DNA of 64,000 nucleotides from Candidatus Babeliales bacterium (GTDB lineage Bacteria > Babelota > Babeliae > Babelales > JANWKD01). The position numbers and the translations under genes are program-made. Location of the stretch: the NCBI GenBank assembly GCA_963722255.1, contig CAVRJO010000001.1:96001-160000 (forward strand), in the 5' to 3' direction. This document shows positions 8,635 to 32,470 of this stretch, one piece after another; within the stretch, counting starts at the first letter, position 1; every line of letters starts with the position of its first letter. The notes beneath the pieces are model-generated. The model saw only the letters and a program-made list of their open reading frames with translations, made no database searches and had not been told where the DNA came from.

Positions 8635-10701
8635 ATGAAGTTCTCTCTTAAAACCTCTTTAAAAGCAATAGTATTGCTTGCTTGCTCTATCACTATGTTT
8701 TGTGGATTTATTATATCTGAATGTACAAATAATATATATGCTACTAAACAAAAACCTTTTTCAATGGGTCATGGGAATCAAAAATATAGCGTAATTCCTT
8801 GTATGCTAGATCTTAAAAATATAATACAAGCTCTTATTGAACATCATATTCAAAATAAAATAGAAGATGAAATTCCAGAAGAGTTTTTTATTTGCTACAA
8901 AACATTACTCGAAGGCAAAAATATATTTTTGACCGAAGATTTATTAAAAGCATTAACCTATATAGCTTTGAAACTTGATGAACTCACTCAGTCCAAAGCT
9001 CCTCGAGAAGATGCACCAAATGGGAATCCAATTGTTGGCCCATTAATTGCTTGTGATATTAGTTCGAAAATTATTTTAGTAAATCAAATAATTAACCTTA
9101 TTAAAAATTGCTGTAATCAATTAGAAGAAGATTTTAATCTTACTTTTAGTTTAGTTACTGATTTAAATACTACGATCACAACGTGCATAACTGTCATTAC
9201 TGCTTTAGACTTTTCAGCTACTGCGACAGTATTAGCTGATATACAAAATACTCTAACAGCATGTTGCCAAGAGATAGCAAATGAATTTCAACAAACATGG
9301 ACCATTCTAGCAGCTGGATTCAATGAAACTTCAACGGTACTCGCTGATATAAAAAATACCATGACCTCATGTTGTGCGAATACTCAACTAAATTTTCAAG
9401 GAACATTTACTCTCATTACATCTATACAAAATAGCAAGCGGTGTCCTCCTATTTCACTCTGCTCGCCAATTCAAATTATGGCACCAACAACTATTTCTAC
9501 ACCAGGTTTTTACTGTTTAAATAACGATATTAGTGGTCAAATTGTTATCAATGCAAATGATGTTACACTCGATTTAAATAGTCATACGATTACCGGAGGA
9601 GGTATTGGATCAGGAAGCGGCATTATTGTCAACTCAGGATTTAATAGGCTTATTAAGAATGGAAATATCACTGCATTTGATAATGGTATTCAATGTATAG
9701 GAAACACTGATACCGTTATAGAAAATCTTATAATCACAAACTGTTTTATTGAAGGTGTTACCATAAATACAGGAACTGCCATTTTTCTAGATTCATTATC
9801 AATACATAATATATCAGGAATTGGTGTTCATTTTGTTAATGGAAATGATGCAAGTAGTATAAAAAATAGTACCGTAACACAATCTGAACAAGGATTTGTT
9901 TTTGATTTTATTTATAACAGCTTAATTCAAAATTGCAATGTTCTTGATTGTAGTTCAAATTTAAACATTACTGCAGGAAACGTTGGCGGTTTTATTATCA
10001 ATAATGGAAGCTTTATTCAAATTAATAACAGCTCTGTTAAAAACTATGTAGGGCTTCAACGCATAGCAGGGTTTGCATTAGTTAATGCGGTAGAAAACGT
10101 TATTTTTAGTAACTGTACTGCTCAAAATATTGTTGCAACATTGCCTGGACAGGTCGTTTCAATCGCCTTTGGATATATAGCAGGTTTATTCACATCGCAT
10201 TTAGAATTCACTGATTGCTCAGCTTTATCTGTTACTGCTGATCAAATTGCTGTTTGCTTTGAAATAGAAGGCCCCGGAGTAACGCTTGATAAATGTAGCG
10301 CCCAAATTTGCACATCAAATAGTATTCTTGCCGATGGTTTTCACTCCATAAGCAATAATGTATCTATAAGTTATTGCCAAGCTTATAAATGCAAACAAAA
10401 CGGCTTTAATCTAGATTCATTTAACAATAGTACGGTACTTCAATATTGCCAAAGTGCATACAATAATAATGGATTTATCATTCAAACACCTTCCAGTCTG
10501 CTTGATAATTGCGTTGCATTTAAAAATAATATTGGATTTAATCTTAATATTGCAGGAATCTCCCTTGTACATTGCTTTGCAGCACAAAATACTACTAATT
10601 ACACATTTTTTGCTAATAATGTACAAAATGCAAATACCCAAGTTAATAATGCCGCCCCTCTCCTTACCGGTCCCTTTGCAGGAGCAAACCTATTTATGTA
10701 A
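8635..10701 (+). CDS. Secreted CC-repeat coiled-coil + right-handed beta-helix protein (paralog 1)
   Basis: Signal peptide, DIKNTxTxCC repeats, PTTISTPGFYCL cap, N..GF beta-helix repeats, C-terminal NANTQVN..LTGPFAGANLFM. Confidence 0.85.
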   Translation: MKFSLKTSLKAIVLLACSITMFCGFIISECTNNIYATKQKPFSMGHGNQKYSVIPCMLDLKNIIQALIEHHIQNKIEDEIPEEFFICYKTLLEGKNIFLTEDLLKALTYIALKLDELTQSKAPREDAPNGNPIVGPLIACDISSKIILVNQIINLIKNCCNQLEEDFNLTFSLVTDLNTTITTCITVITALDFSATATVLADIQNTLTACCQEIANEFQQTWTILAAGFNETSTVLADIKNTMTSCCANTQLNFQGTFTLITSIQNSKRCPPISLCSPIQIMAPTTISTPGFYCLNNDISGQIVINANDVTLDLNSHTITGGGIGSGSGIIVNSGFNRLIKNGNITAFDNGIQCIGNTDTVIENLIITNCFIEGVTINTGTAIFLDSLSIHNISGIGVHFVNGNDASSIKNSTVTQSEQGFVFDFIYNSLIQNCNVLDCSSNLNITAGNVGGFIINNGSFIQINNSSVKNYVGLQRIAGFALVNAVENVIFSNCTAQNIVATLPGQVVSIAFGYIAGLFTSHLEFTDCSALSVTADQIAVCFEIEGPGVTLDKCSAQICTSNSILADGFHSISNNVSISYCQAYKCKQNGFNLDSFNNSTVLQYCQSAYNNNGFIIQTPSSLLDNCVAFKNNIGFNLNIAGISLVHCFAAQNTTNYTFFANNVQNANTQVNNAAPLLTGPFAGANLFM

Positions 10702-10735
10702 GGTAATAGAAAAATATACTATATAAGGAATAAGA

Positions 10736-12562
10736 ATGAAGCATACTATCTATAAAAAAATAAAAACAGTTTTGGGCTTTGTAATAATTGTAGTACCACT
10801 CATATGTTATTCACAAACAAACAGCGATTATTTGCATAATCGTGCTCCTCGAATAGATGCGATAGAATTAGCCGATGGAGCTGTTGTAGGACCATTACTT
10901 AATTGTAATTCAGTAAAAGTTTTAGGATTACTTAACATTTTAAAAAAAGACATCAACTCTTGCTGTATTGAGTTGGAAAATGATTTTATAGGAACATTTA
11001 CGATTTTATCAGATATAAAAAATACATTTACAGCGTGCTGCACAATAATCCAAAGTGATATTAATGGGACTTTTACAACGTTATCTGATGTTTTAACTAC
11101 GTTAACGAATTGTTGCAATGAAATAACCAATGAATTTAATCAAACATGGACCATTTTAGCAGCTGGATTTTCAAATACATTCACTGCATATTTTGATTTT
11201 AAATCAACCTTAACAACATGTTGCGATCAAATCGAAACAAATTTTACAAACATATTCATTGCATTAGAAAATCTTTCTGCTATCTGTCAAGGTTCTGTGT
11301 GCAACGCAATTACCATAACTGCACCAGGAACCATATCCATTCCTGGTTCATATTGTCTTGCTAACGATATTATTGGATCAATAATAATTAATGCAAATAA
11401 TGTTACCTTTGACTTAAATAATCATACAATTTCAGGTTCAGGTGCAGGAAGTGGTGCAGGGATTATACTTAATGCTGGCTCCAATCGCGTTGTAAAAAAT
11501 GGACGTATAACCAATATTGATTCTGGGATTGTATGCAATAACAATAACCAAACAATCTTAGAGGGTATTGTTGTTGAAACAGCATTTGTTGAAGGCATAA
11601 CCATTAATAATGGTAATACTATACTGTTAGATTCTTTAATTACCACAAGCGTCCTTGGTATCGGCGTTCACTTTACCGGTAACAACAACGGTACTCTCAT
11701 CAATAATACGACCGTTACTCTCTCCCAACAAGGTTTTGTTTTTGATACTATAACCAATAGTTTAATTAGGAATTGTAACGTTCTTGATTGTAGCACCACC
11801 GTAGTTACTCCATTAGGAACCACCGTAGGCGGTTTTACTATTATTAATGGTAGCTTTATACAGTTCGAAAACTGCTCTGTCAAAAACTACATTGGAGTTG
11901 ACTCAGTGGCAGCATTCTCACTTAATAATAATGTTAATAACGTAATTTTTAAAGCTTGTACTGTGCAAAATATAATTGCAACTATTTCATCTTCGTTTGG
12001 ATCCATAGCTGTTGGTTTTAATTGTGGCGTTACCAATACTATTCAACTTCTTAATTGTTCTGTTTTAGATGCAGCAGCAGATCTATTTGCAGGTGGTTTT
12101 TTATTCACAGGATCGAACATACAAGCAGAAAATTGTATTGCGCGCCATTTTACTACTTTTACTATTCCTCCTAGCTCTGGCAATAGTATCGGATTTCAAG
12201 TTACCAATAATAACGTTATACTAAAAAATTGCGAAGCCTATGAATGCGCCCAAACAGGATTTTTCATATCACCCACAGGAACCCTTATTAATGTTTCACT
12301 CATTAACTGTCAAGCTGCGTATAATAATTCTGGTTTTTCAACGCAATCAGCAGGTACCATTTTTGAACAATGTGTAGCATTTAAAAATGGCACCGGATTT
12401 TTTTCGTCAGTGGTGGGGGTTTCACCTTTCAGATGCTTTTCTACACAAAACACAACTAATTATGGTGGATCCATTGTCAATGTACAAAATGCCAATACCC
12501 AAGTAAATAATTCAGCGCTTGGACTCACAGGTCCATTTGCTGGTGGTAATTTATTTATTTAA
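10736..12562 (+). CDS. Secreted CC-repeat coiled-coil + beta-helix protein (paralog 2)
   Basis: Same architecture and C-terminal motif. Confidence 0.85.
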   Translation: MKHTIYKKIKTVLGFVIIVVPLICYSQTNSDYLHNRAPRIDAIELADGAVVGPLLNCNSVKVLGLLNILKKDINSCCIELENDFIGTFTILSDIKNTFTACCTIIQSDINGTFTTLSDVLTTLTNCCNEITNEFNQTWTILAAGFSNTFTAYFDFKSTLTTCCDQIETNFTNIFIALENLSAICQGSVCNAITITAPGTISIPGSYCLANDIIGSIIINANNVTFDLNNHTISGSGAGSGAGIILNAGSNRVVKNGRITNIDSGIVCNNNNQTILEGIVVETAFVEGITINNGNTILLDSLITTSVLGIGVHFTGNNNGTLINNTTVTLSQQGFVFDTITNSLIRNCNVLDCSTTVVTPLGTTVGGFTIINGSFIQFENCSVKNYIGVDSVAAFSLNNNVNNVIFKACTVQNIIATISSSFGSIAVGFNCGVTNTIQLLNCSVLDAAADLFAGGFLFTGSNIQAENCIARHFTTFTIPPSSGNSIGFQVTNNNVILKNCEAYECAQTGFFISPTGTLINVSLINCQAAYNNSGFSTQSAGTIFEQCVAFKNGTGFFSSVVGVSPFRCFSTQNTTNYGGSIVNVQNANTQVNNSALGLTGPFAGGNLFI

Positions 12563-12589
12563 TTTTAAATACAAAAAAAAGGAATATAA

Positions 12590-14323
12590 ATGAAGCTTAT
12601 TTCTAGCAATAAAAATAGATTACTTTGTATTGGTTTGGTTTTGCTTGTATGGTCTCAAGACCTTTTAGGAGACGAAATAAATAGGAAGAATCCAATTATT
12701 GTTTGCGATTTTAATCCTACCATTGAAACGATACTTGAGATAACTACGCTTTTTAATAGTTGCTGTAATCAGTTACAACAAGATTTTAGCGAAACATTTA
12801 CAACTCTTAATGACATTAAAAATACCCTAACAACCTGTTGCACTTTAGCTCAATCAGAATTCGATGCAACATTTACTGCCCTTGCAGATTTAAAAAATAC
12901 TCTTTCTGCATGCTGCTTTGAAACCACCTTAGAATTTCAGGGAACCTGGACAATATTGGCAGCAGCATTCAATGGTACATTTACCGCAACTGCTGATATA
13001 AAAAATACCCTTACGAGTTGTTGTAACATTATTCAGAATGATTTTCAAGCTACCCTTAGTGTTATTAGTTCACTCAGTTCTATCTGCTTGTTTGCTTGTT
13101 CAGCTATACCTATAACTGCTCCAACAACAATTTCAACTCCAGGATATTATTGTCTTGCAGCCGATGGTGCAGGTCCCATTATTATTAATGCAAACAATGT
13201 TACGTTAGATCTCAATAATCATACGTTAGCAGGAAGTGGCATAGGATCGGGTTCTGGTATTATTGTAAACAGCGGCAATAATAGAATTATTAAAAATGGA
13301 AAAATAAGAAATTTTGATACGGCAATTCTTTGCAATAGCAATATTAATACTCTTATAAACACACTAGAAATTGATACCTGTTTTGTACAAGCAATAGAAA
13401 TAATAAGTTCTACTGCAACATATTTAAATAGATTATTAATAAGCAATATAACAGGTATTGGCGTTCAATTTTCTGGATCCAATAATCATGCAAATATACT
13501 AACAAAGGTCACTGTTATTGAAGCACAACAAGGTTTTGTTTTAACAAGTTTTTTTACTGGTTTATTACAAGAATGTGAAGTAATAGATTGTATATCTTCG
13601 ATCATTCCGGGTACAACTTTGAATGGTTTTGTTATTAATGAAGGTAATTCTAATCTATTTGATACTTGTTCAGTAAAAAATTTTGCTTCTTCTCGTTCTC
13701 GAGGGTTTGCTTTCAATAATGCATCTACTATAATTCTACGGAATTGCTCAGTGCAAAATCTTGTTACTTCACCCATCTTATCAAATGAAGTGATCGGGTT
13801 TGATTGCACAGCTTCTTCAACCGATATTCAATTGTGGAGCTGTTCTTTACACGATGCTCAATCTTCCTCAGTTTGTACAGGATATGAGTTTGCAGGTAAT
13901 ACCATTACCGCAAAAAACTGTTTAGCACAAGCTTGCACATCACTCGGGGTAAATGCTGGAACTGGTTTTGATCTTACTGGAATCAATATTTCTCTCATTA
14001 ATTGTCAAGCATTGAGCAATACTCAAAATGGTTTTAATGCTGTAACGAACAATCCAGGTCTTATGCAATACTGCCAAGCTGGTTTTAATGCCAATAATGG
14101 ATTTATCATTGGTGCAAATACCACTACCGGAAATTGTTCATCATTCAATAACAATATAGGCTTTAATGCTCCTTCTAATGCAATTATTTATAACTGTTTT
14201 GCATCAAAAAATAGTACCAACTATGTTGCAACAGTTCCTAATACGGAAAATGCTAATACTCAAGTTAATAAAGCTGCTCCAGGGCTCACAGGTCCATTTG
14301 CTGGAGGCAATGTATTTATGTAA
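12590..14323 (+). CDS. Secreted CC-repeat coiled-coil + beta-helix protein (paralog 3)
   Basis: Same architecture and C-terminal motif. Confidence 0.85.
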   Translation: MKLISSNKNRLLCIGLVLLVWSQDLLGDEINRKNPIIVCDFNPTIETILEITTLFNSCCNQLQQDFSETFTTLNDIKNTLTTCCTLAQSEFDATFTALADLKNTLSACCFETTLEFQGTWTILAAAFNGTFTATADIKNTLTSCCNIIQNDFQATLSVISSLSSICLFACSAIPITAPTTISTPGYYCLAADGAGPIIINANNVTLDLNNHTLAGSGIGSGSGIIVNSGNNRIIKNGKIRNFDTAILCNSNINTLINTLEIDTCFVQAIEIISSTATYLNRLLISNITGIGVQFSGSNNHANILTKVTVIEAQQGFVLTSFFTGLLQECEVIDCISSIIPGTTLNGFVINEGNSNLFDTCSVKNFASSRSRGFAFNNASTIILRNCSVQNLVTSPILSNEVIGFDCTASSTDIQLWSCSLHDAQSSSVCTGYEFAGNTITAKNCLAQACTSLGVNAGTGFDLTGINISLINCQALSNTQNGFNAVTNNPGLMQYCQAGFNANNGFIIGANTTTGNCSSFNNNIGFNAPSNAIIYNCFASKNSTNYVATVPNTENANTQVNKAAPGLTGPFAGGNVFM

Positions 14324-14359
14324 TTCTTTTGATAAAAAATGTACTTAAGGAGAACCGTA

Positions 14360-16369
14360 ATGAAATTTTATGATGTATTAAAACTATCGTTATTAATGAT
14401 TTTTTGTGTTTTTTGTCATATCAGCTCACAACCATTCGAAGATACCATTGCACAACTATCTCTTATTAATGATTATGTAGAACTTACTTCTTTAACATCT
14501 ACACAATTAGGATCTAAACTCAAGGAGATACTAACGCAAATACTTGAACATCAAGACAATATCCCGGAAGAGATTAATCGATGTTATCAAGCGTTACATG
14601 AAAAAGCTCAATCAGTAAAAATTAACGATCTAATCATAACATTGATGTATAGTATTGATTATAAAGCACCAGGATTACTTTTACATAAAAGTCTACGTGC
14701 TCCTCGCCCCAATGCATCTCAAAATAACAATTCAGTAGTAGGGCCAATAATTAACTGTGATCTTCATCAGCTCACTGAGCTGCTTGAATTTTTGCGAATT
14801 TTAATAACGCTTTGTTGCGAACAATTAGAACAGGATTTTAACATTCTTTTTAGTGATTTAACTACCATACTAAATAATCTCAACACCTACTGCATTTTAA
14901 TAACAGCTACGTCCGATTTTCAGGGTACATTTACCACAATTCAAGATATAAAAAATACCCTGACCACATGTTGTGCAAACATTACCCTTGATTTTGAAGC
15001 TACCTGGACTAGTATCTTTGCTGGCTTTGCAACAACTTTTACTGAGATTTCAGATATAAAAAATACATTTACGATCTGTTGTGATGAAATTCAACAAAAT
15101 TTTCAAGGAACATTTACAGCATTACATAGTTTAAGCACAACAAATACCTGCATATCTCCCTGTGGCGCAGTTCCTATTACACAATCTACTATTATTACCG
15201 TCTCAGGTTCTTACTGCCTTTCTAAGGATATTGCTGGTCCAATAACTGTTAATGCAAATAATGTAACATTAGATTTAAATAATCATACCGTTTCAGGTTC
15301 AGGTGCAGGCAGTGGTGCGGGCATTATACTTAATGCTGGATCTAACAGGTTAATTAAAAATGGACGTATTGAAAATTTTGATACCGCAATTTTTAGTACA
15401 AACAATGTCACAACTGCGTTATTAAACATTGTTATTAACACCTGCTTTATTGAAGGAATAACAATCAATAATGGAACCGATATTCATTTGGATTCACTCG
15501 TAATAACAAGTATTATTGGTATCGGAGTTCATTTGACAGGAATTAACAATGCATATCTTATAAAAAATGTTTTAATTAACTTGGCAGAGCAAGGATTTAT
15601 TTTTGATACTATTTCTAATAGTCTGATACAAAATTGTGAAGTTACTGATTGTAACTCTCCTCTTTCGACACAAGGTTATGCAGTTAATGCTGGAAGCTTT
15701 AATCAATTTGATAATTGCTCAGCTAAAAATCTTGTTTCAATAATTAAGTCAGTAGGTTTTTTCTTATTAAATAGCAACAATACCATACTCACAGACTGTA
15801 CTGTTGAGAATATGATTACTAACGTTGGAGCCTCTGCCGAAGGTTTTGAATGTAATACTCTCTCAAGCGATAATGAATTATTACATTGTTCAGTTTTAAA
15901 TGTTAATGCTCCCGTTTTCACCGCTGGATTCGCTTTAGAAGGTACTGCTATTACAGCAATCGATTGTCTTACACAATCCTGTTTTACCTCTGATTTTAAT
16001 GGTAATGGCTTTGTGTGTACTGGTTCAAATATAGCATTAACAGATTGCCAGGCATTTAACTGTCAATCTGTTGGATTTAACATAACATCAACAAATATTA
16101 CGCTGCAATTTTGCCAAAGTGCTTATAATGATACTGGGTTCTTGATTAACAATCCTAATGTTCTTATTGGCAATTCAGTTGCAGTAAATAATGGCTCCAT
16201 TGGTTTTAATAGTAACTTTTTAACTCTAGCACTCTATCATTGTTTTGCTTCTCAAAATGGAATCAATAATTATGTTGGTATTCCTAATGTTCAAAATGCA
16301 AATACCCAGGTAAATAATACAGCACCAGGACTTACAGGACCTTTTGCAGGAGCTAATCTCTTTATCTAA
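14360..16369 (+). CDS. Secreted CC-repeat coiled-coil + beta-helix protein (paralog 4)
   Basis: Same architecture; ATG at 14360 follows AAGGAG. Confidence 0.85.
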   Translation: MKFYDVLKLSLLMIFCVFCHISSQPFEDTIAQLSLINDYVELTSLTSTQLGSKLKEILTQILEHQDNIPEEINRCYQALHEKAQSVKINDLIITLMYSIDYKAPGLLLHKSLRAPRPNASQNNNSVVGPIINCDLHQLTELLEFLRILITLCCEQLEQDFNILFSDLTTILNNLNTYCILITATSDFQGTFTTIQDIKNTLTTCCANITLDFEATWTSIFAGFATTFTEISDIKNTFTICCDEIQQNFQGTFTALHSLSTTNTCISPCGAVPITQSTIITVSGSYCLSKDIAGPITVNANNVTLDLNNHTVSGSGAGSGAGIILNAGSNRLIKNGRIENFDTAIFSTNNVTTALLNIVINTCFIEGITINNGTDIHLDSLVITSIIGIGVHLTGINNAYLIKNVLINLAEQGFIFDTISNSLIQNCEVTDCNSPLSTQGYAVNAGSFNQFDNCSAKNLVSIIKSVGFFLLNSNNTILTDCTVENMITNVGASAEGFECNTLSSDNELLHCSVLNVNAPVFTAGFALEGTAITAIDCLTQSCFTSDFNGNGFVCTGSNIALTDCQAFNCQSVGFNITSTNITLQFCQSAYNDTGFLINNPNVLIGNSVAVNNGSIGFNSNFLTLALYHCFASQNGINNYVGIPNVQNANTQVNNTAPGLTGPFAGANLFI

Positions 16370-19976: not shown

Positions 19977-21098
19977 CTATTTTTTTAATTTTTTTGTTTT
20001 TTTATTTTGCGCTTCTAAAGCTTCACTTTTTTCAAGTTCAGCCTCAATTTCTTCTATAGTAGGCAAACTACTTTTAAACTCTTTGGGCAACTTATTCATA
20101 ATTTCTGTTTCATATTCAGCAACACCAATTGGTTTCTTAATATCCCGTAATGCATACTCAGCGGTAAAATTCTTTTTCGTTTTACACAATAACAAGCCAA
20201 TTGTTGGTTTATCGTACTCATCACGAACTAAATCATCGACGGCAGATAAATAGAAATTGAGCTGGCCAACATCTCGAGGATCAAATGCTCGTGCTTTTAA
20301 TTCAACCACAACGTAGCATTTTAGTTTTAGATGATAAAAAAGAAGATCAATATAATAATCATCACCATCTACTTCTAAATGATATTGCCGCCCCACCAAT
20401 GAAAAACCTTTACCCATTTCAAGAAGAAGCTGCTCAACATTATGGATAAGCCCTTCCTCTAGATCTCGTTCAATATGATCTTCATGTAAAGTAAGAAAAT
20501 CAAAAATATAAGGATCTTTAAATGATTGTTGCGCCATGGCAGAATGAGGTAAAGGTAATGTATGTTTAAAATTTGTTATCGCCTTTCCTTCTCTGCTAAA
20601 AAGATCAGACTTAATCCACGTTTCCAAAGCGCTTCTACTCCAGCCGCATTCTAAAGCTTTTTTTGCGTACCACAAGCGTTTTTCGATGGTTTTGACTTTC
20701 TCCAAGAGTACAGCATTATGACCCCAGGGAATAGTAAAAATAGGTAACTCTTCTAATTGTGCCACAGCTTGTGGCACAATTTCATAAGCCTTATAAAAAG
20801 CTAACATTCTAAAGACATTACGCTTTGAAAAGCCTCCCATTCCAGAGCATAAATTTTGCAAATCATGCGCTAATTTTTCAAGAACACGAGCCCCCCAACC
20901 TTCTTTTTTCTGTTTTTCGACAATGAGCTTACCAATTGACCAATAAAGTTTAATAAGCTCTTTATTAACAGAAAGAATCGCGTTTACTTTTGATTGCTCA
21001 ATTTGACTCTTTATTTCCGCCAACGTTGATACATACTCTTTTGTAGAAATTGCTTCATCTTTTTTTAAGGTTGTTTTTTTTGCGCTATTTTTTTTCAT
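19977..21098 (-). CDS. DUF1016/YhcG family PD-(D/E)XK nuclease
   Basis: LYWSIG, IPWGHN, FKDPYIFDFL, LLEMGKGF, IDLLFYH, VVVELK, GQLNFYL, PTIGLLLC. Confidence 0.92.
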   Translation of the reverse strand: MKKNSAKKTTLKKDEAISTKEYVSTLAEIKSQIEQSKVNAILSVNKELIKLYWSIGKLIVEKQKKEGWGARVLEKLAHDLQNLCSGMGGFSKRNVFRMLAFYKAYEIVPQAVAQLEELPIFTIPWGHNAVLLEKVKTIEKRLWYAKKALECGWSRSALETWIKSDLFSREGKAITNFKHTLPLPHSAMAQQSFKDPYIFDFLTLHEDHIERDLEEGLIHNVEQLLLEMGKGFSLVGRQYHLEVDGDDYYIDLLFYHLKLKCYVVVELKARAFDPRDVGQLNFYLSAVDDLVRDEYDKPTIGLLLCKTKKNFTAEYALRDIKKPIGVAEYETEIMNKLPKEFKSSLPTIEEIEAELEKSEALEAQNKKTKKLKK

Positions 21099-23963: not shown

Positions 23964-25712
23964 ATGAACGCAGGAGTAAAGAAGTTTATAGTAGGTCTGT
24001 TCTGTATTGCATTTACGTCTATCCATGCCATTGAATCTTATAACGAAAAAAAAACAGTTTTTGATGAAAATTTTAGTAAAACTTTAGAATCAGAAATTCG
24101 TTCCATCATCTCACGTGACTGTTCCTTCTCTATCGGACAAATTTCACAATTCAATATTCCTTTTGTTATTAATAATAGAATCAGCCCGAATAACAGTTTC
24201 AATAATATTACACCAACAACAAATGCATTCAGTAATAACACGTTAATCGGACTTTCTGCGACCAATAATACCACGAACTCATTTAATACTGACAATACAA
24301 TTAATACTAATAACATTACTAACGGCTTTAGTTCCTTTAATAGCAATGCAAATCCAATAAACTGTAATGTTACGGTTAATAATAGCAATAATCCATCCGG
24401 TCTTTATTGTCTGGCTCCAAACTTTGCTTCACAAGTTACCAATAATCCTCAACTCGTTGGGAAAATTGCTGTTCCTTGTAATGTTGGAATTACTATTAGT
24501 GCAAGCAATGTTATTATAGATTTTAATGATACCGTGCTTATGGGTAGCGGAGGGTCAACAGGAATCTTAATTAATGGTGGCGTTTCAAATATCATTATAC
24601 GAAACGGTACCATAAGCAATATGACAAATGCAGGGATTACTATAAACAATGGTAGTAGTGCCATGACAGGTTCGATTCTTATTGAAAATATGAAATTCTT
24701 CAACAACGGAACAGCTGTCAATGTTATTGGTGGATTCAATGTTATACTACAAAACTCTCGAGCCTATTTTTCAAATTCTAATGGATTTTCATTTTCCCAA
24801 GTAACCGACTGCTTTTTAAATAATTGCATAAGCAATAGCAATAACAACCATGGCTTTAACATTGCAAATTCAAATTCTATTGTTATATCAAATTGCCAAT
24901 CTGATGAAAATACCCAAAATGGTTTTAATATCACTGGGCTTACGGGAAGTGTCATCGAACAATGCGTGGCTAATAATAATCAAAATGGTTTTGTAATTGC
25001 ACCAGGGAGTGCTCTATCACAAAACGTATTAATAAATCATTGTTTTACCGCGCAAAATACGATTATAGGATTTTCAATAACAGGAAATGCCATAAATGGC
25101 GATGAATGTGTTTCTTATAATAACACGACGGGATTTCAATGTATTGGCAACGCTATTTCATTAAGTGATTCTGTTGCAAAAAATAACTCCGGTAATGGAT
25201 TTCAAGTTACCGGTAATTTTGCTCAACTAACCAATACAGAATCAATGAGCAACACGGCTCAAGGATTTCAAATTAATGGAATTACTAATTCACTGTTACA
25301 TGCTCTAGCAAAAAATAATGGCACCAATGGATTTCAAATTACCGGTACCGGGTCAGAGATACAATATTGCACTGCTTCAAGCAACGGTTCAAATGGAATC
25401 ATTATCAATGGCAACAATCATGCCATCTTAAATTGCATAGCACAACAACATAATATAGGTAATGGAACAACGACAGGAAATGGAATTTTATTAGCAGCGC
25501 TTAATGGATTTGGCCCAATTTCAACGACCTGCCAAGTTAGAAATAATACAACAATTGGTAATGTAACCGGTATCAACAATCAAGGAACCAATAATAGAAT
25601 CTATTCAAATTTTTCAAACAATAATACCACTAATTATATCAATGTTCCCAATGTAGCAACATCCCCACTGATAACGGATCCAATTAACTTCACAGCAAAT
25701 ATCTCAGAATAG
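23964..25712 (+). CDS. Secreted right-handed beta-helix repeat protein (distant relative of the 8.6-16.4 kb array)
   Basis: Signal peptide, Asn/Thr-rich linker, SGLYCL cap, many ~22-aa NN..GF.I.G repeats, C-terminal NNTTNYINVPNV. Confidence 0.85.
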   Translation: MNAGVKKFIVGLFCIAFTSIHAIESYNEKKTVFDENFSKTLESEIRSIISRDCSFSIGQISQFNIPFVINNRISPNNSFNNITPTTNAFSNNTLIGLSATNNTTNSFNTDNTINTNNITNGFSSFNSNANPINCNVTVNNSNNPSGLYCLAPNFASQVTNNPQLVGKIAVPCNVGITISASNVIIDFNDTVLMGSGGSTGILINGGVSNIIIRNGTISNMTNAGITINNGSSAMTGSILIENMKFFNNGTAVNVIGGFNVILQNSRAYFSNSNGFSFSQVTDCFLNNCISNSNNNHGFNIANSNSIVISNCQSDENTQNGFNITGLTGSVIEQCVANNNQNGFVIAPGSALSQNVLINHCFTAQNTIIGFSITGNAINGDECVSYNNTTGFQCIGNAISLSDSVAKNNSGNGFQVTGNFAQLTNTESMSNTAQGFQINGITNSLLHALAKNNGTNGFQITGTGSEIQYCTASSNGSNGIIINGNNHAILNCIAQQHNIGNGTTTGNGILLAALNGFGPISTTCQVRNNTTIGNVTGINNQGTNNRIYSNFSNNNTTNYINVPNVATSPLITDPINFTANISE

Positions 25713-25728
25713 TTTCATCCTCAATGCA

Positions 25729-25757
25729 AAAGGCCCAGCATTTATTGCTAGGCCTTT
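25729..25757. terminator. Bidirectional terminator-like hairpin
   Basis: aaaggcccagca...tgctaggccttt between convergent genes. Confidence 0.65.
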
Positions 25758-25785
25758 ACATCATAGAACTATTTCAGAATATTCA

Positions 25786-26937
25786 TTAATCCCAAGGATT
25801 CCACTCTTCTTCCTCTTCACCCTCTTCTTCTTCAGGATTCATTGATTTATAACGCTCCCCAAGTACTTTTTTCAATCGCTCTTGCAAAGAACCTTCTCCC
25901 TCTCCCGTTTCAGGCTTTTTTTCTTCCATTTCCGGTTTTTTAAGTTTTCCCATCTTTTCTTTTAATTGTTCTTCTAAACTCTTTTCTGGCGCTTGCGGAG
26001 CTCCAGGTTCTTTTTTTTCAGGTGAAGGTGGCGGAGGAGGTATTGTTCCTTCATGTTCTTCTTTTTGAGGCTTCTCAGGCTCTACTCCAGGTAAAGGAGG
26101 CAACGGTCTTTCTTCTTCTGATCCTTCAGGCAATTCTCGTTTAGGCACCGGCGGTGGTTCATTTCCTTCATATCCTTCTTGCCATGATCTTTTAACATTT
26201 CTATAGGCATTATTTAGTTGGTTTACATAACTTTTTCGCGTCCCAAGAATATTCTTTTCTTTCATGATCTCTTTCATGAGAGATGCATGCCGAGCCATTA
26301 AATCTTTTTCACGCTGCAATTCTTCAGGTGTATAAACTAATTCTTCTTCTTTTTTAGGCAAGATAGGCAATTCTCTGAGAGATTCCAATATTTTTCTATA
26401 TATTTGTAGTGCATAAGGTGATTGATCAATTGCTTGCAATAATGCACTGATCTTATCTTGAATTTTTTTATTTTTTATTTGTGTTTCAAGCAGTGGCAGC
26501 TTTTGGGAAAAACGTTTTAATAGTTCTTCTAAATGAGAGTTAACAAATGATCGTAAAATTTCAGGATTACTAGATTGATCAACTTCCTGCAATAGATCTG
26601 AAAATTCTGCAAGAATGCTCTTTTGCGCTTGCTTTTCTACAGGAGTTAAATCTTGTAGTGGTAATTCTGACTTGCTTATAGATGGGACAAGGTTTGCCTC
26701 ATCAAAGAGCGCGTAAATAACAGCCAGAGGTTTTCCCTGAGCACCAATTTTAGTGAAAAATATTTGTAACTTTTCTTTTAACGGCTCAAGCGTCTCATCT
26801 CCTGCCAAAACCAAAACAAGTTCTTGCAATGTTGCCCGCAAGCTTTTTAACTGATCAACAATAGTATATGAGGCATACACAGAGGCAGAACACAGTAACA
26901 AAACAAACAAGAGACTCATAGTTTTACATTTGTTCAT
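25786..26937 (-). CDS. Secreted proline-rich protein with C-terminal WH2-Central-Acidic (VCA-like) module; putative Arp2/3 nucleation-promoting factor mimic
   Basis: Signal peptide; PPPVPKR, RPLPPLP, PPPPP; SLEEQLKEKMGKLKKP; SLQERLKKVLGERYKSM; EEEEGEEEEEWNPWD*. Confidence 0.7.
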   Translation of the reverse strand: MNKCKTMSLLFVLLLCSASVYASYTIVDQLKSLRATLQELVLVLAGDETLEPLKEKLQIFFTKIGAQGKPLAVIYALFDEANLVPSISKSELPLQDLTPVEKQAQKSILAEFSDLLQEVDQSSNPEILRSFVNSHLEELLKRFSQKLPLLETQIKNKKIQDKISALLQAIDQSPYALQIYRKILESLRELPILPKKEEELVYTPEELQREKDLMARHASLMKEIMKEKNILGTRKSYVNQLNNAYRNVKRSWQEGYEGNEPPPVPKRELPEGSEEERPLPPLPGVEPEKPQKEEHEGTIPPPPPSPEKKEPGAPQAPEKSLEEQLKEKMGKLKKPEMEEKKPETGEGEGSLQERLKKVLGERYKSMNPEEEEGEEEEEWNPWD

Positions 26938-27111
26938 AGGTAACTCTTTTTTTAGGCTAAAAATATGTCACATCACTATAAACTATAAAAATTTCTCCAA
27001 TTCAAACTCAAGAATTAAATACAACAAAACAATAAACCTCTATAAAACAGATCTTTTTTGTCGAAAACAATTCAATTTTTTAAATTCTCGTTTACACTAA
27101 TTACTGTAGAG

Positions 27112-27120
27112 TTATCCACA
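27112..27120 (+). promoter_or_regulatory. Perfect DnaA box upstream of dnaE
   Basis: TTATCCACA ending 25 nt before the dnaE ATG. Confidence 0.55.
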
Positions 27121-27145
27121 AAAATAATCATTAAGACCCATTTCT

Positions 27146-31359: not shown

Positions 31360-31451
31360 TCAAATATTTTTAATTTCTGCAGGGATATATTTTCCATCAA
31401 TATCTGGAAGAGGATTTGCTTTATGTGACTCCAAAATAATTTGAGCGGCAA
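31360..31451 (-). pseudogene. Probable 3' remnant of the gene starting at 32636, separated by transposase fragments
   Basis: Open reading IAAQIILESHKANPLPDIDGKYIPAEIKNI* begins where IS3 homology ends. Confidence 0.45.
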
Positions 31452-31955
31452 TTCCATCCCATGATTTTTCGACTAAAAACATCAATTAAGCAAACCAAAT
31501 ATACAAAACCACCCCGTATTTTTATATAGGTTATATCTACTTGCCAAACCTGATTTGGTCGATTAATAAGCAACCCACGCAATAAATAAGGAAATACTTT
31601 GTGCCCCTGATTTCGTATGGTTGTTTTTTTGCGAGGGTAAATGGCCTGGATGCCCGCTATCTTAAGCAACATAAAGACTTTTTTATGATTAACCAAAAAA
31701 CCATTTTCTCTTAAAGCTACTGTCATGCGCCGATAGCCATAGGAAGGCGTTTCTTGATAAATTTCACGTAGCTCATTCATAATAATTGCATCATTATTTT
31801 TTTGAGGTTTAGGCTTGTAATACATCGATCCTCTCGATACATCTAAAAGTTCACATTTTCTTTTAAAGTCTATTGCTTCATTTACACACTCAACCATTTC
31901 CTTACGCTGCTTTAAATCTATCGATTGAGCGAGCGTTCTAAAAAATCACGCTCTC
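31452..31955 (-). mobile_element. IS3-family internal fragment (end of orfA, 5' half of orfB); no terminal repeats seen
   Basis: orfA tail ERDFLERSLNR*, orfB YGYRRM, PNQVWQVDITYI, LIDVFSRKIMGW; 31452..31837 near-identical to 45143..45528. Confidence 0.9.
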
Positions 31956-32470
31956 CAATAATAAGCAACACTTAAAACAAGAATAAGACGTTCTATTCGT
32001 TCTGCATGGCGTAACTGAGTAGTAGTGATATCAAAGCCTCTTGATTTAAAGTCTGAGAACATAGGCTCAATAGACCATCGCATGCCATAATCAAGAACTT
32101 TATATTCGGTAGGAACACAATCCATAGCAATGATCCAAGGTTCATCTTTGCCTTCATCTTGTAGTGCACCAATGTTAGTTGTAACGCCAGAATTATTCAA
32201 CTGAACATTGCACAACGATGTTTGTTTTAATCTGATAAGCTCGCCAGAACTCAATTCCCCACCATGATGAAAAAGAATAAGATTACCTTTCAAGCGAATG
32301 CGGTATCGCCATTTGAAACTTTGACATAATTGGATAAGCGCAGGATTCCCATAGAATCTATCCGCCATTAAAATAATTTTTGCATAGCTTGGTATGTTAG
32401 CAAACACCGCCTCAAGCAGTTGTTTTTGAATGGTAAAGCCAATTTCTCCTTGAGTTTAGTCTCCATTTTT
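31946..32470 (-). mobile_element. Internal fragment of a DDE transposase (IS4/IS5-like, DDE_Tnp_1 type)
   Basis: ADRFYG, YRIRLKGN, EPWIIA, YGMRWSIEPMFSDFKSRGF (Y-x2-R-x3-E-x6-K); homology extends upstream as QGEIGFTIQKQLL. Confidence 0.85.

Follow-up and report, generated by a model that had tools for sequence, protein, structure and literature searches.

Eukaryotic class I nucleation-promoting factors (NPFs), such as N-WASP (PDB entries 6uhc, 2vcp and 3m3n) and WAVE1 (3p8c, 4n78 and 7usc), end in a so-called VCA module, in which a proline-rich region leads to a WH2 motif (V), a Central helix with an arginine (C), and an acidic run with a near-terminal tryptophan (A). In WASP-family activators, polyproline runs upstream of this module bind and feed profilin-actin. 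Pathogens also have activators of this kind: Listeria ActA, Burkholderia thailandensis BimA and baculovirus P78/83 combine acidic or CA-type Arp2/3-binding elements with actin-binding motifs, ActA being equipped with a Sec signal and a C-terminal membrane-helix anchor, BimA being a trimeric autotransporter, and P78/83 a capsid protein. RickA, from a bacterium of intracellular lineage, has a proline-rich region followed by WH2, C and A and, to our knowledge, no Sec signal peptide. The same layout is found in Wbm0076, a Wolbachia protein described as WASP-like in a preprint (bioRxiv 10.1101/2022.08.02.502435). This article deals with P0001, a protein of 383 residues in which this order of elements recurs, and which is encoded on the minus strand at positions 25786–26937 of a 64,000-nucleotide stretch of Candidatus Babeliales bacterium DNA (assembly GCA_963722255.1, contig CAVRJO010000001.1, positions 96,001–160,000 of the forward strand), hereafter called the window. 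Its phylum, the Dependentiae (TM6, “Babelota”), consists of widespread obligate parasites of protists, whose handling of the host cell is almost uncharted. From sequence comparison we propose, with a probability of about 0.65, that P0001 is an exported effector of an intracellular, protist-dependent bacterium, and a mimic of class I NPFs acting on host Arp2/3.

The comparison with described systems can be made element by element. P0001 shares with N-WASP and WAVE1 the whole order from proline-rich region to near-terminal tryptophan, but it has no Pfam match to WH1/EVH1, GBD/CRIB, the Scar-homology domain or WAHD1. Without a regulatory N-domain it is therefore not a member of the WASP, WAVE or WASH families, and the module alone is alike. 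Where the eukaryotic proteins carry those domains, P0001 has an apparent bacterial signal peptide and an unrelated helical N-domain; its WH2-like motif diverges too far for Pfam to recognise it, and its tail is a two-tryptophan NPWD end. RickA and Wbm0076 resemble it in being bacterial, intracellular and similarly arranged, but they come from a different phylum, and none of ActA, BimA and P78/83 shares the P0001 N-domain. A search of NCBIfam yielded no model for P0001 and no relevant one for its relatives, the BimA model being touched below threshold by one Babeliales protein, P0016 (E 0.034, 13 bits against a cut-off of 600). Within the phylum itself there are canonical VCA proteins in other Babeliales (loci L083–L087, L099–L102 and L105; proteins P0009–P0016), which have the same signal-peptide-plus-tail layout and a homologous V-C-A module. 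They differ from P0001 in their unrelated N-domains, in a canonical WH2 of the form LLxxIxxGxxLKKV, and in tails that read W[DEQ]x instead of W-NPW[DE].

Motif order and conservation of the P0001 tail

The open reading frame (ORF) of P0001 runs from ATG to stop (383 codons plus a stop codon at 25786–25788) and is present once in the whole genome. An earlier note on this DNA, made from the sequence alone, had quoted a series of motif strings; all of them are present in this ORF and could be mapped back to the DNA. The proline-rich region (residues 257–315; 25993–26169) is predicted to be disordered, and contains PPPVPKR (residues 261–267; 26137–26157) and RPLPPLP (residues 277–283; 26089–26109). 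These had been called class II and class I SH3 ligands: the first fits the pattern PxxPx[KR] and the second is identical to the type I consensus, both patterns being given in PMC11842026. An RPLPPLP peptide binds the Fyn SH3 domain with a dissociation constant of 8.2 uM, according to PMC7703624. Further along lies a polyproline run, IPPPPP (residues 299–304; 26026–26043), a putative profilin or EVH1 site.

The module proper follows. It begins with a WH2-like motif, SLEEQLKEKMGKLKKP (residues 320–335; 25933–25980), which aligns column for column with the Pfam-positive WH2 of two Babeliales relatives, L084 and L087; it is divergent, with a Glu in place of one hydrophobic residue and one extra residue in the linker. 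Next comes a Central-like amphipathic helix, GSLQERLKKVLGERYKSM (residues 349–366; 25840–25893), which AlphaFold2 also models as a helix (351–365) and which is conserved in all homologues. The acidic tail with its two tryptophans, NPEEEEGEEEEEWNPWD (residues 367–383; 25789–25839), ends in EEW-NPWD, and the C-terminal end of the protein reads EEEEGEEEEEWNPWD-stop. All these features, like the ORF itself, are on the minus strand. Their combination exceeds chance expectation and is unusual within the genome. Among its 2077 six-frame ORFs of at least 80 residues, P0001 is the only one with at least 9 acidic residues in the last 18 and a tryptophan in the last 6. It is also alone in containing RPLPPLP, while PPPP occurs in six ORFs, P0001 among them.

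P0001 belongs to a small family. A HMMER scan of 1.84 billion representatives gave six proteins at E up to 0.001, two of which (P0002 and P0006) are pieces of P0001 itself. The true distant homologues are thus four: P0003 (384 residues), P0004 (354 residues), P0005, and P0007 (347 residues), with P0008 (263 residues) as a cluster mate of P0005. A word-index search with P0001 returned one true homologue only. The homologues come from Logan or JGI metagenome contigs of 1.2–31 kb and bear no informative names. No loci were obtained by scanning genome and metagenome contigs with the profile A1, metagenome contigs with P0007, or viral contigs with A3, the profile made of the five sequences of the family.

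The motif order is kept in the homologues at only 39–49% identity. The polyproline run, in which columns I299, P300 and P302–P304 are nearly invariant, the C helix, the acidic run and the first tryptophan (the W379 column) are found in all five sequences, and the [DN]PW[DE] end in four, P0004 and P0005 ending in DPWD. The earlier note had singled out the LKK, the Central arginine and the terminal tryptophan as residues whose conservation should be checked, and for the most part they are indeed conserved. The tryptophan is kept in 5/5 sequences and the arginine (Arg362) in 4/5; LKK or LRK is kept in the three that have the WH2-like pattern L-x3-L ... L[KR]K (P0001, P0003 and P0007), the motif being missing from the other two. 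Of the SH3-ligand sites, RPLPPLP is exact in P0001, P0003 and P0005 and becomes RKLPSLP in P0004, and the PPPVPKR site is aligned with APPVPER in P0005. The N-domain is conserved in P0003 and P0004, and partly in P0005.

P0007 is a special case. It matches residues 277–380 of P0001 only, has no signal peptide, and carries an orphan N-domain that is unrelated to that of P0001 and for which a search found no relatives. In its tail, the string LEEQLKEK, shared with P0001, precedes a C-like helix and EEEEEEEEENEWSD. The presence of this near-identical string in two unrelated proteins points to module capture or exchange, and the likeness of the two tails suggests that a VCA module has passed between unrelated genes. 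The module may first have been acquired from protist hosts and later have moved from one bacterial gene to another.

Profile links to canonical modules and their spread in the phylum

When A3 was run across 261 representative genomes of the phylum, it matched the C-termini of ORFs from further Babeliales genomes. The N-domains of these ORFs are unrelated and their tails canonical, as in RDLLEQIKAGTTLKKT ... LKKQIEERRKAI ... SEWD-stop or ...RDLLEQIKAGTTLKKT...SLKKQIEERRKAIKEEETEENVDASEWD-stop, and the only public name attached to such module proteins is “hypothetical protein [Candidatus Dependentiae bacterium].” Out of six Babeliales tails scanned with Pfam WH2 (cut-off 23.1 bits), those of L084 (26.3) and L087 (26.1) pass, one scores 17.1, and three give no match. 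MAFFT places the P0001 tail collinear with the canonical Babeliales tails. Conversely, a hidden Markov model (HMM) built from five canonical modules and searched against the 2077 ORFs of the genome returned P0001 as the single match below the inclusion threshold (E 8.3e-5), aligning its residues 317–379 to model positions 3–66.

Two more profiles were used, A4 with eight sequences including P0001, and A5 with ten canonical modules and no member of the P0001 family. Comparison of A3 and A5 by hhalign gave a probability of 97.7% (E 1.7e-12) in an alignment of 62 columns that runs from V through C to A. In a control rerun the real score was 56.4, while 200 column shuffles had a mean of 8.5 and a maximum of 18.2, none of them reaching the real score; the reversed profile scored 12.0. 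Shuffling of the V-C columns alone, with the acidic tail left in place, gave 18.8 on average and at most 27.6. The acidic run therefore accounts for about one third of the hhalign score, the remainder coming from V and C columns in their proper order. Searched against the PDB, A5 aligns with the whole VCA of N-WASP (6uhc_H; profile 1–65, chain 428–493; E 8.2e-12) and with WAVE1 up to its terminal tryptophan (3p8c_D; profile 2–65, chain 217–277; E 2.2e-5), Spire and WIP WH2 chains being among its further matches. With A4, the N-WASP and WAVE1 matches are again collinear and take in the C region, and a Vibrio WH2 chain is weakly matched as well. The succession of proline-rich, WH2-like, Central and acidic-tryptophan elements that the earlier note had read in P0001 is thus conserved in its family, and this profile chain appears to link it to canonical VCA modules.

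How widespread are such modules? At a per-genome E of at most 0.001, A4 matches 27 ORFs in 26 of the 261 phylum genomes, that of P0001 included, and 17 of the 189 high-quality ones. By our crude rules, a WH2-pattern match, at least 6 acidic residues in 12 and a following tryptophan occur together in 12 of the 27 ORFs. A stricter rule, which adds a C pattern, leaves 6/27, but its regular expression is too strict and visibly missed good C helices such as LKKQIEERRKAI. Where the 5′ end is complete, a signal-peptide-like N-terminus is found in 17 of 21 module ORFs, again by a crude rule. Pfam WH2 itself is above cut-off in 21/261 genomes and at E <0.01 in 32/261, against 0/14 control genomes, the genome of P0001 not being included among the positives. 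Altogether, VCA or WH2 modules are found on many unrelated proteins, most of which bear signal peptides (L083–L087, L091, L099–L119). Eukaryote-type actin (PF00022) was found in 0/261 genomes of the phylum, at a threshold at which the controls were equally silent; the target would therefore have to be host actin.

The modules are also varied in composition. Two to three tandem WH2 motifs are seen in the Babeliales relatives L101, L109, L110, L111 and L114, and the acidic tryptophan end is missing in L104, L112 and L116–L118. Proteins with either of these peculiarities may be Arp2/3-independent nucleators.

N-terminal domain, proposed export route and genomic setting

The N-terminus of P0001, MNKCKTMSLLFVLLLCSASVYA (residues 1–22; 26872–26937, minus strand), looks like a signal peptide, with two Lys, a 13-residue hydrophobic core and the sequence VYA|SY. 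On inspection and under a crude home-made rule, it is compatible with the n, h and c regions of the Sec signal peptide claimed earlier, which remains a putative one; the homologues P0003–P0005 share the same type of N-terminus. The N-terminal domain itself (residues 23–256; 26170–26871, minus strand) belongs to no known family, and has no match in Pfam, in NCBIfam or among PDB sequences. AlphaFold2, run on the five-sequence alignment, gives helices in the N-domain, disorder over residues 257–350 and a single tail helix. The helical N-domain of the earlier note agrees with this model, whose confidence is low (mean pLDDT 49.3).

Direct searches with the full protein were equally silent. Pfam at E up to 10 gave only three chance-level touches, NCBIfam gave 0 families, and the best touch among PDB sequences was FliH (E 0.022), which was taken as coiled-coil noise. 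A TonB-like Pro/Glu/Lys spacer was ruled out, P0001 having no TonB C-domain. Immediately after the signal peptide, L085, L087, L091 and L092 (genomes G033 and G166) as well as P0001 (residues 26–45) have a leucine-heptad helix of the form L..L...LK.KL..L, L092 being a protein without a VCA tail. Perhaps this helix is a coiled-coil or targeting element common to these proteins. As a shared leader within the genome of P0001 it is unsupported, with 28 of 559 crude signal-peptide ORFs matching the loose pattern and no visible family among them.

As for export, the genome (1.62 Mb in two contigs, 93% complete, with a G+C content of about 30–39% in the window) holds two secretins, two GspE/PilB-type ATPases and two GspF-type platform genes. 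VirB4 and FHIPEP, markers of type IV and type III systems respectively, were searched for and have no match in this 93% complete genome. According to PMC4776705, type II secretion with two gspD copies is core in TM6 genomes. For the intracellular Chromulinavorax, PMC6561590 reports signal peptides on 44% of coding sequences, as well as putative outer-membrane vesicles, perhaps effector carriers, that bud early in infection.

The P0001 gene stands among housekeeping genes. One flank holds the genes for RuvB, YebC, YicC and a secreted right-handed beta-helix protein, the other that for DnaE, and the P0001 gene itself is on the opposite strand. Among named records, the best match of this DnaE is a Candidatus Babeliales protein with 64% identity. 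In a genome of the same genus that is 99% complete, the order RuvB-YebC-YicC-beta-helix-DnaE is kept and the P0001 gene is absent: the beta-helix gene and dnaE lie about 415 bp apart there (L123, G001:C1:536000-542700) vs. 1434 bp here (window 25713–27145). A more distant Babeliales locus also lacks a counterpart. Since relatives have this site without the gene, the P0001 gene is a recent gain or loss there. Eukaryotic contamination was ruled out, the gene lying inside a 905,774-base contig between bacterial yicC and beta-helix genes and dnaE.

The surroundings include a few features of their own. The adjoining beta-helix protein has a signal-peptide-like N-terminus and a same-place counterpart in relatives. 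It is one of five paralogous Asn-rich proteins with Pfam Beta_helix (PF13229), encoded on the plus strand at 8635–16369 and 23964–25712, four in tandem and one tail-to-tail with the P0001 gene; these may be surface adhesin-like proteins. Just downstream of dnaE (31421–32407, minus strand), two short ORFs contain transposase or integrase pieces (HTH_21 with a truncated rve, and DDE_Tnp_1), and are probably decayed insertion-sequence remnants near the variable site. A gene for a YhcG-type PDDEXK nuclease (DUF1016) is found beside ruvB (19977–21098, minus strand).

A candidate mimic of host nucleation-promoting factors

The mechanism that we propose for P0001 would begin with Sec export by means of the signal peptide, after which type II machinery, outer-membrane vesicles or surface retention could expose the protein to the host cytosol. 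There, RPLPPLP and PPPVPKR would dock host SH3 adaptors, IPPPPP would recruit profilin-actin, and the WH2-like motif would bind monomeric actin. Host Arp2/3 would be engaged by the Central helix together with the acidic tryptophan tail, which would presumably switch it on rather than inhibit it. Branched actin might then be built at the bacterium or its vacuole, leading to uptake, vacuole remodelling or movement.

Several observations weigh against this proposal. A signal peptide alone takes P0001 only to the periplasm, and the further release to the host is a supposition. The earlier note had called for a search with the WH2 HMM (PF02205), and this check fails: at E up to 10, the model is silent on P0001, on its last 90 residues, on its homologues and on all six frames of the genome. 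The WH2-like helix holds only two conserved hydrophobic positions, L321 and L325, the motif is deleted in P0004 and P0005, and P0007 has no Central arginine at the aligned column. The structure model, as seen above, is of low confidence. Neither P0001 nor A3 reaches a WASP, WAVE or WH2 chain in the PDB, and as far as sequences can tell, the link to solved VCA regions runs only through the Babeliales intermediates. This chain is partly circular, because the intermediates were selected with a profile containing the P0001 family; the circularity is broken because they match Pfam and the PDB independently. In a protein atlas queried with residues 296–383, the best scores were 0.84–0.85, and the look-alike that carries WH2 (score 0.84, in one cluster with WH2 in 19% of members) is a lead only. 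Finally, the gene was not found when 60 relatives were searched with the single protein as query, the 99%-complete genome of the same genus included. Together with the syntenic gap of about 415 bp, this absence indicates that the gene is dispensable.

The main rival, given the degenerate WH2 and the homologues without one, is an Arp2/3-binding inhibitor: P0001 would bind host Arp2/3 via its C helix and acidic tryptophan tail as a decoy, dampening phagosome or cortical actin in the manner of Arpin, which has an acidic tryptophan tail without V. The argument is that the WH2-like motif is too degenerate to deliver actin. It fails Pfam and has a Glu where canonical motifs have their second hydrophobic residue, and two of the four homologues, P0004 and P0005, have no such motif yet keep C and A. 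However, L-x3-L ... L[KR]K is kept in P0003 and P0007, which points to selection on the motif; V could be replaced by the C element, which has an LKK[VA] of its own; and the upstream polyproline run, present throughout the five sequences, is a usual feature of activators supplying profilin-actin. We regard inhibition as quite unlikely. That P0001 works on actin independently of Arp2/3, be it as a nucleator, a sequesterer or an elongation factor of the WH2 type, is very improbable; effectors of this sort exist in Vibrio (VopL/VopF), Chlamydia (TARP) and Legionella (RavH, MavH). What speaks for it comes from the Babeliales relatives, some of which have two to three tandem WH2 motifs or no acidic tryptophan end (L104, L109, L111, L112, L114, L116–L118). 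VopL and Spire WH2 chains also occur among the PDB matches of A4 and A5. P0001, on the other hand, shows a single weak WH2 at most and nothing that suggests tandem copies; conservation is strongest in its C helix and acidic tryptophan tail, which are Arp2/3-binding elements.

One may also ask whether the tail is a VCA module at all. It might belong to a periplasmic or surface protein with an unrelated task, being charged and disordered there and resembling VCA through low-complexity convergence, or else its [DN]PW[DE] end might be an endocytic-adaptor motif: DPW and DPF bind the AP-2 alpha ear, and two family members have a DPWD end. Neither P0001 nor the family profile has direct database matches, and the acidic run supplies part of the profile score, about 19 of 56 with the V-C columns shuffled. 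However, the order of the columns matters, as no shuffle out of 200 comes near the real score, the reversed profile reaches only 12, and about two thirds of the total comes from V and C in their native order. The acidic-tryptophan module is moreover unique in its genome, N-WASP and WAVE1 are matched along their entire VCA by related modules, and only a eukaryotic cytosol would give RPLPPLP and polyproline a use. This explanation is unlikely.

Returning to P0001 as a mimic of class I NPFs, the earlier note knew of no description of such a protein in this lineage. This holds for the literature covered here: a full-text search, with most subscription journals and supplements outside its scope, found no paper linking Dependentiae with Arp2/3 or WH2. 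In three Dependentiae papers, PMC4776705 and PMC6561590 among them, no relevant passage on actin was found; these papers mention ankyrin repeats, hydrolases and many signal-peptide proteins, and no actin factor. What is new is the phylum, the Sec signal and type II machinery with no type III or IV marker found, the unrelated N-domain, the double-tryptophan NPWD end, and the recurrence of the module on many scaffolds.

The phylum-wide VCA repertoire is a more interesting result than the single protein. Judging from the modules described above, host-actin hijacking is probably a common trick in the phylum. We would go one step further only tentatively, and regard it as a serious possibility that the Dependentiae carry a diversified and shuffled set of Sec/type II-exported VCA and WH2 effectors on unrelated N-domains, gained and lost between close relatives, and that activation of host Arp2/3 would be a general infection strategy achieved without type III or type IV injection. 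If the proposal for P0001 is true, a new bacterial phylum and a Sec/type II route would join the short list of WASP-mimicking pathogens. The natural variants, with canonical or degenerate WH2, one to three WH2 copies, tails with or without the acidic tryptophan, and double-tryptophan NPWD ends, would form a series for asking which VCA features Arp2/3 activation needs. For the Dependentiae themselves, a testable host-actin module would be the first molecular handle on their cell biology.

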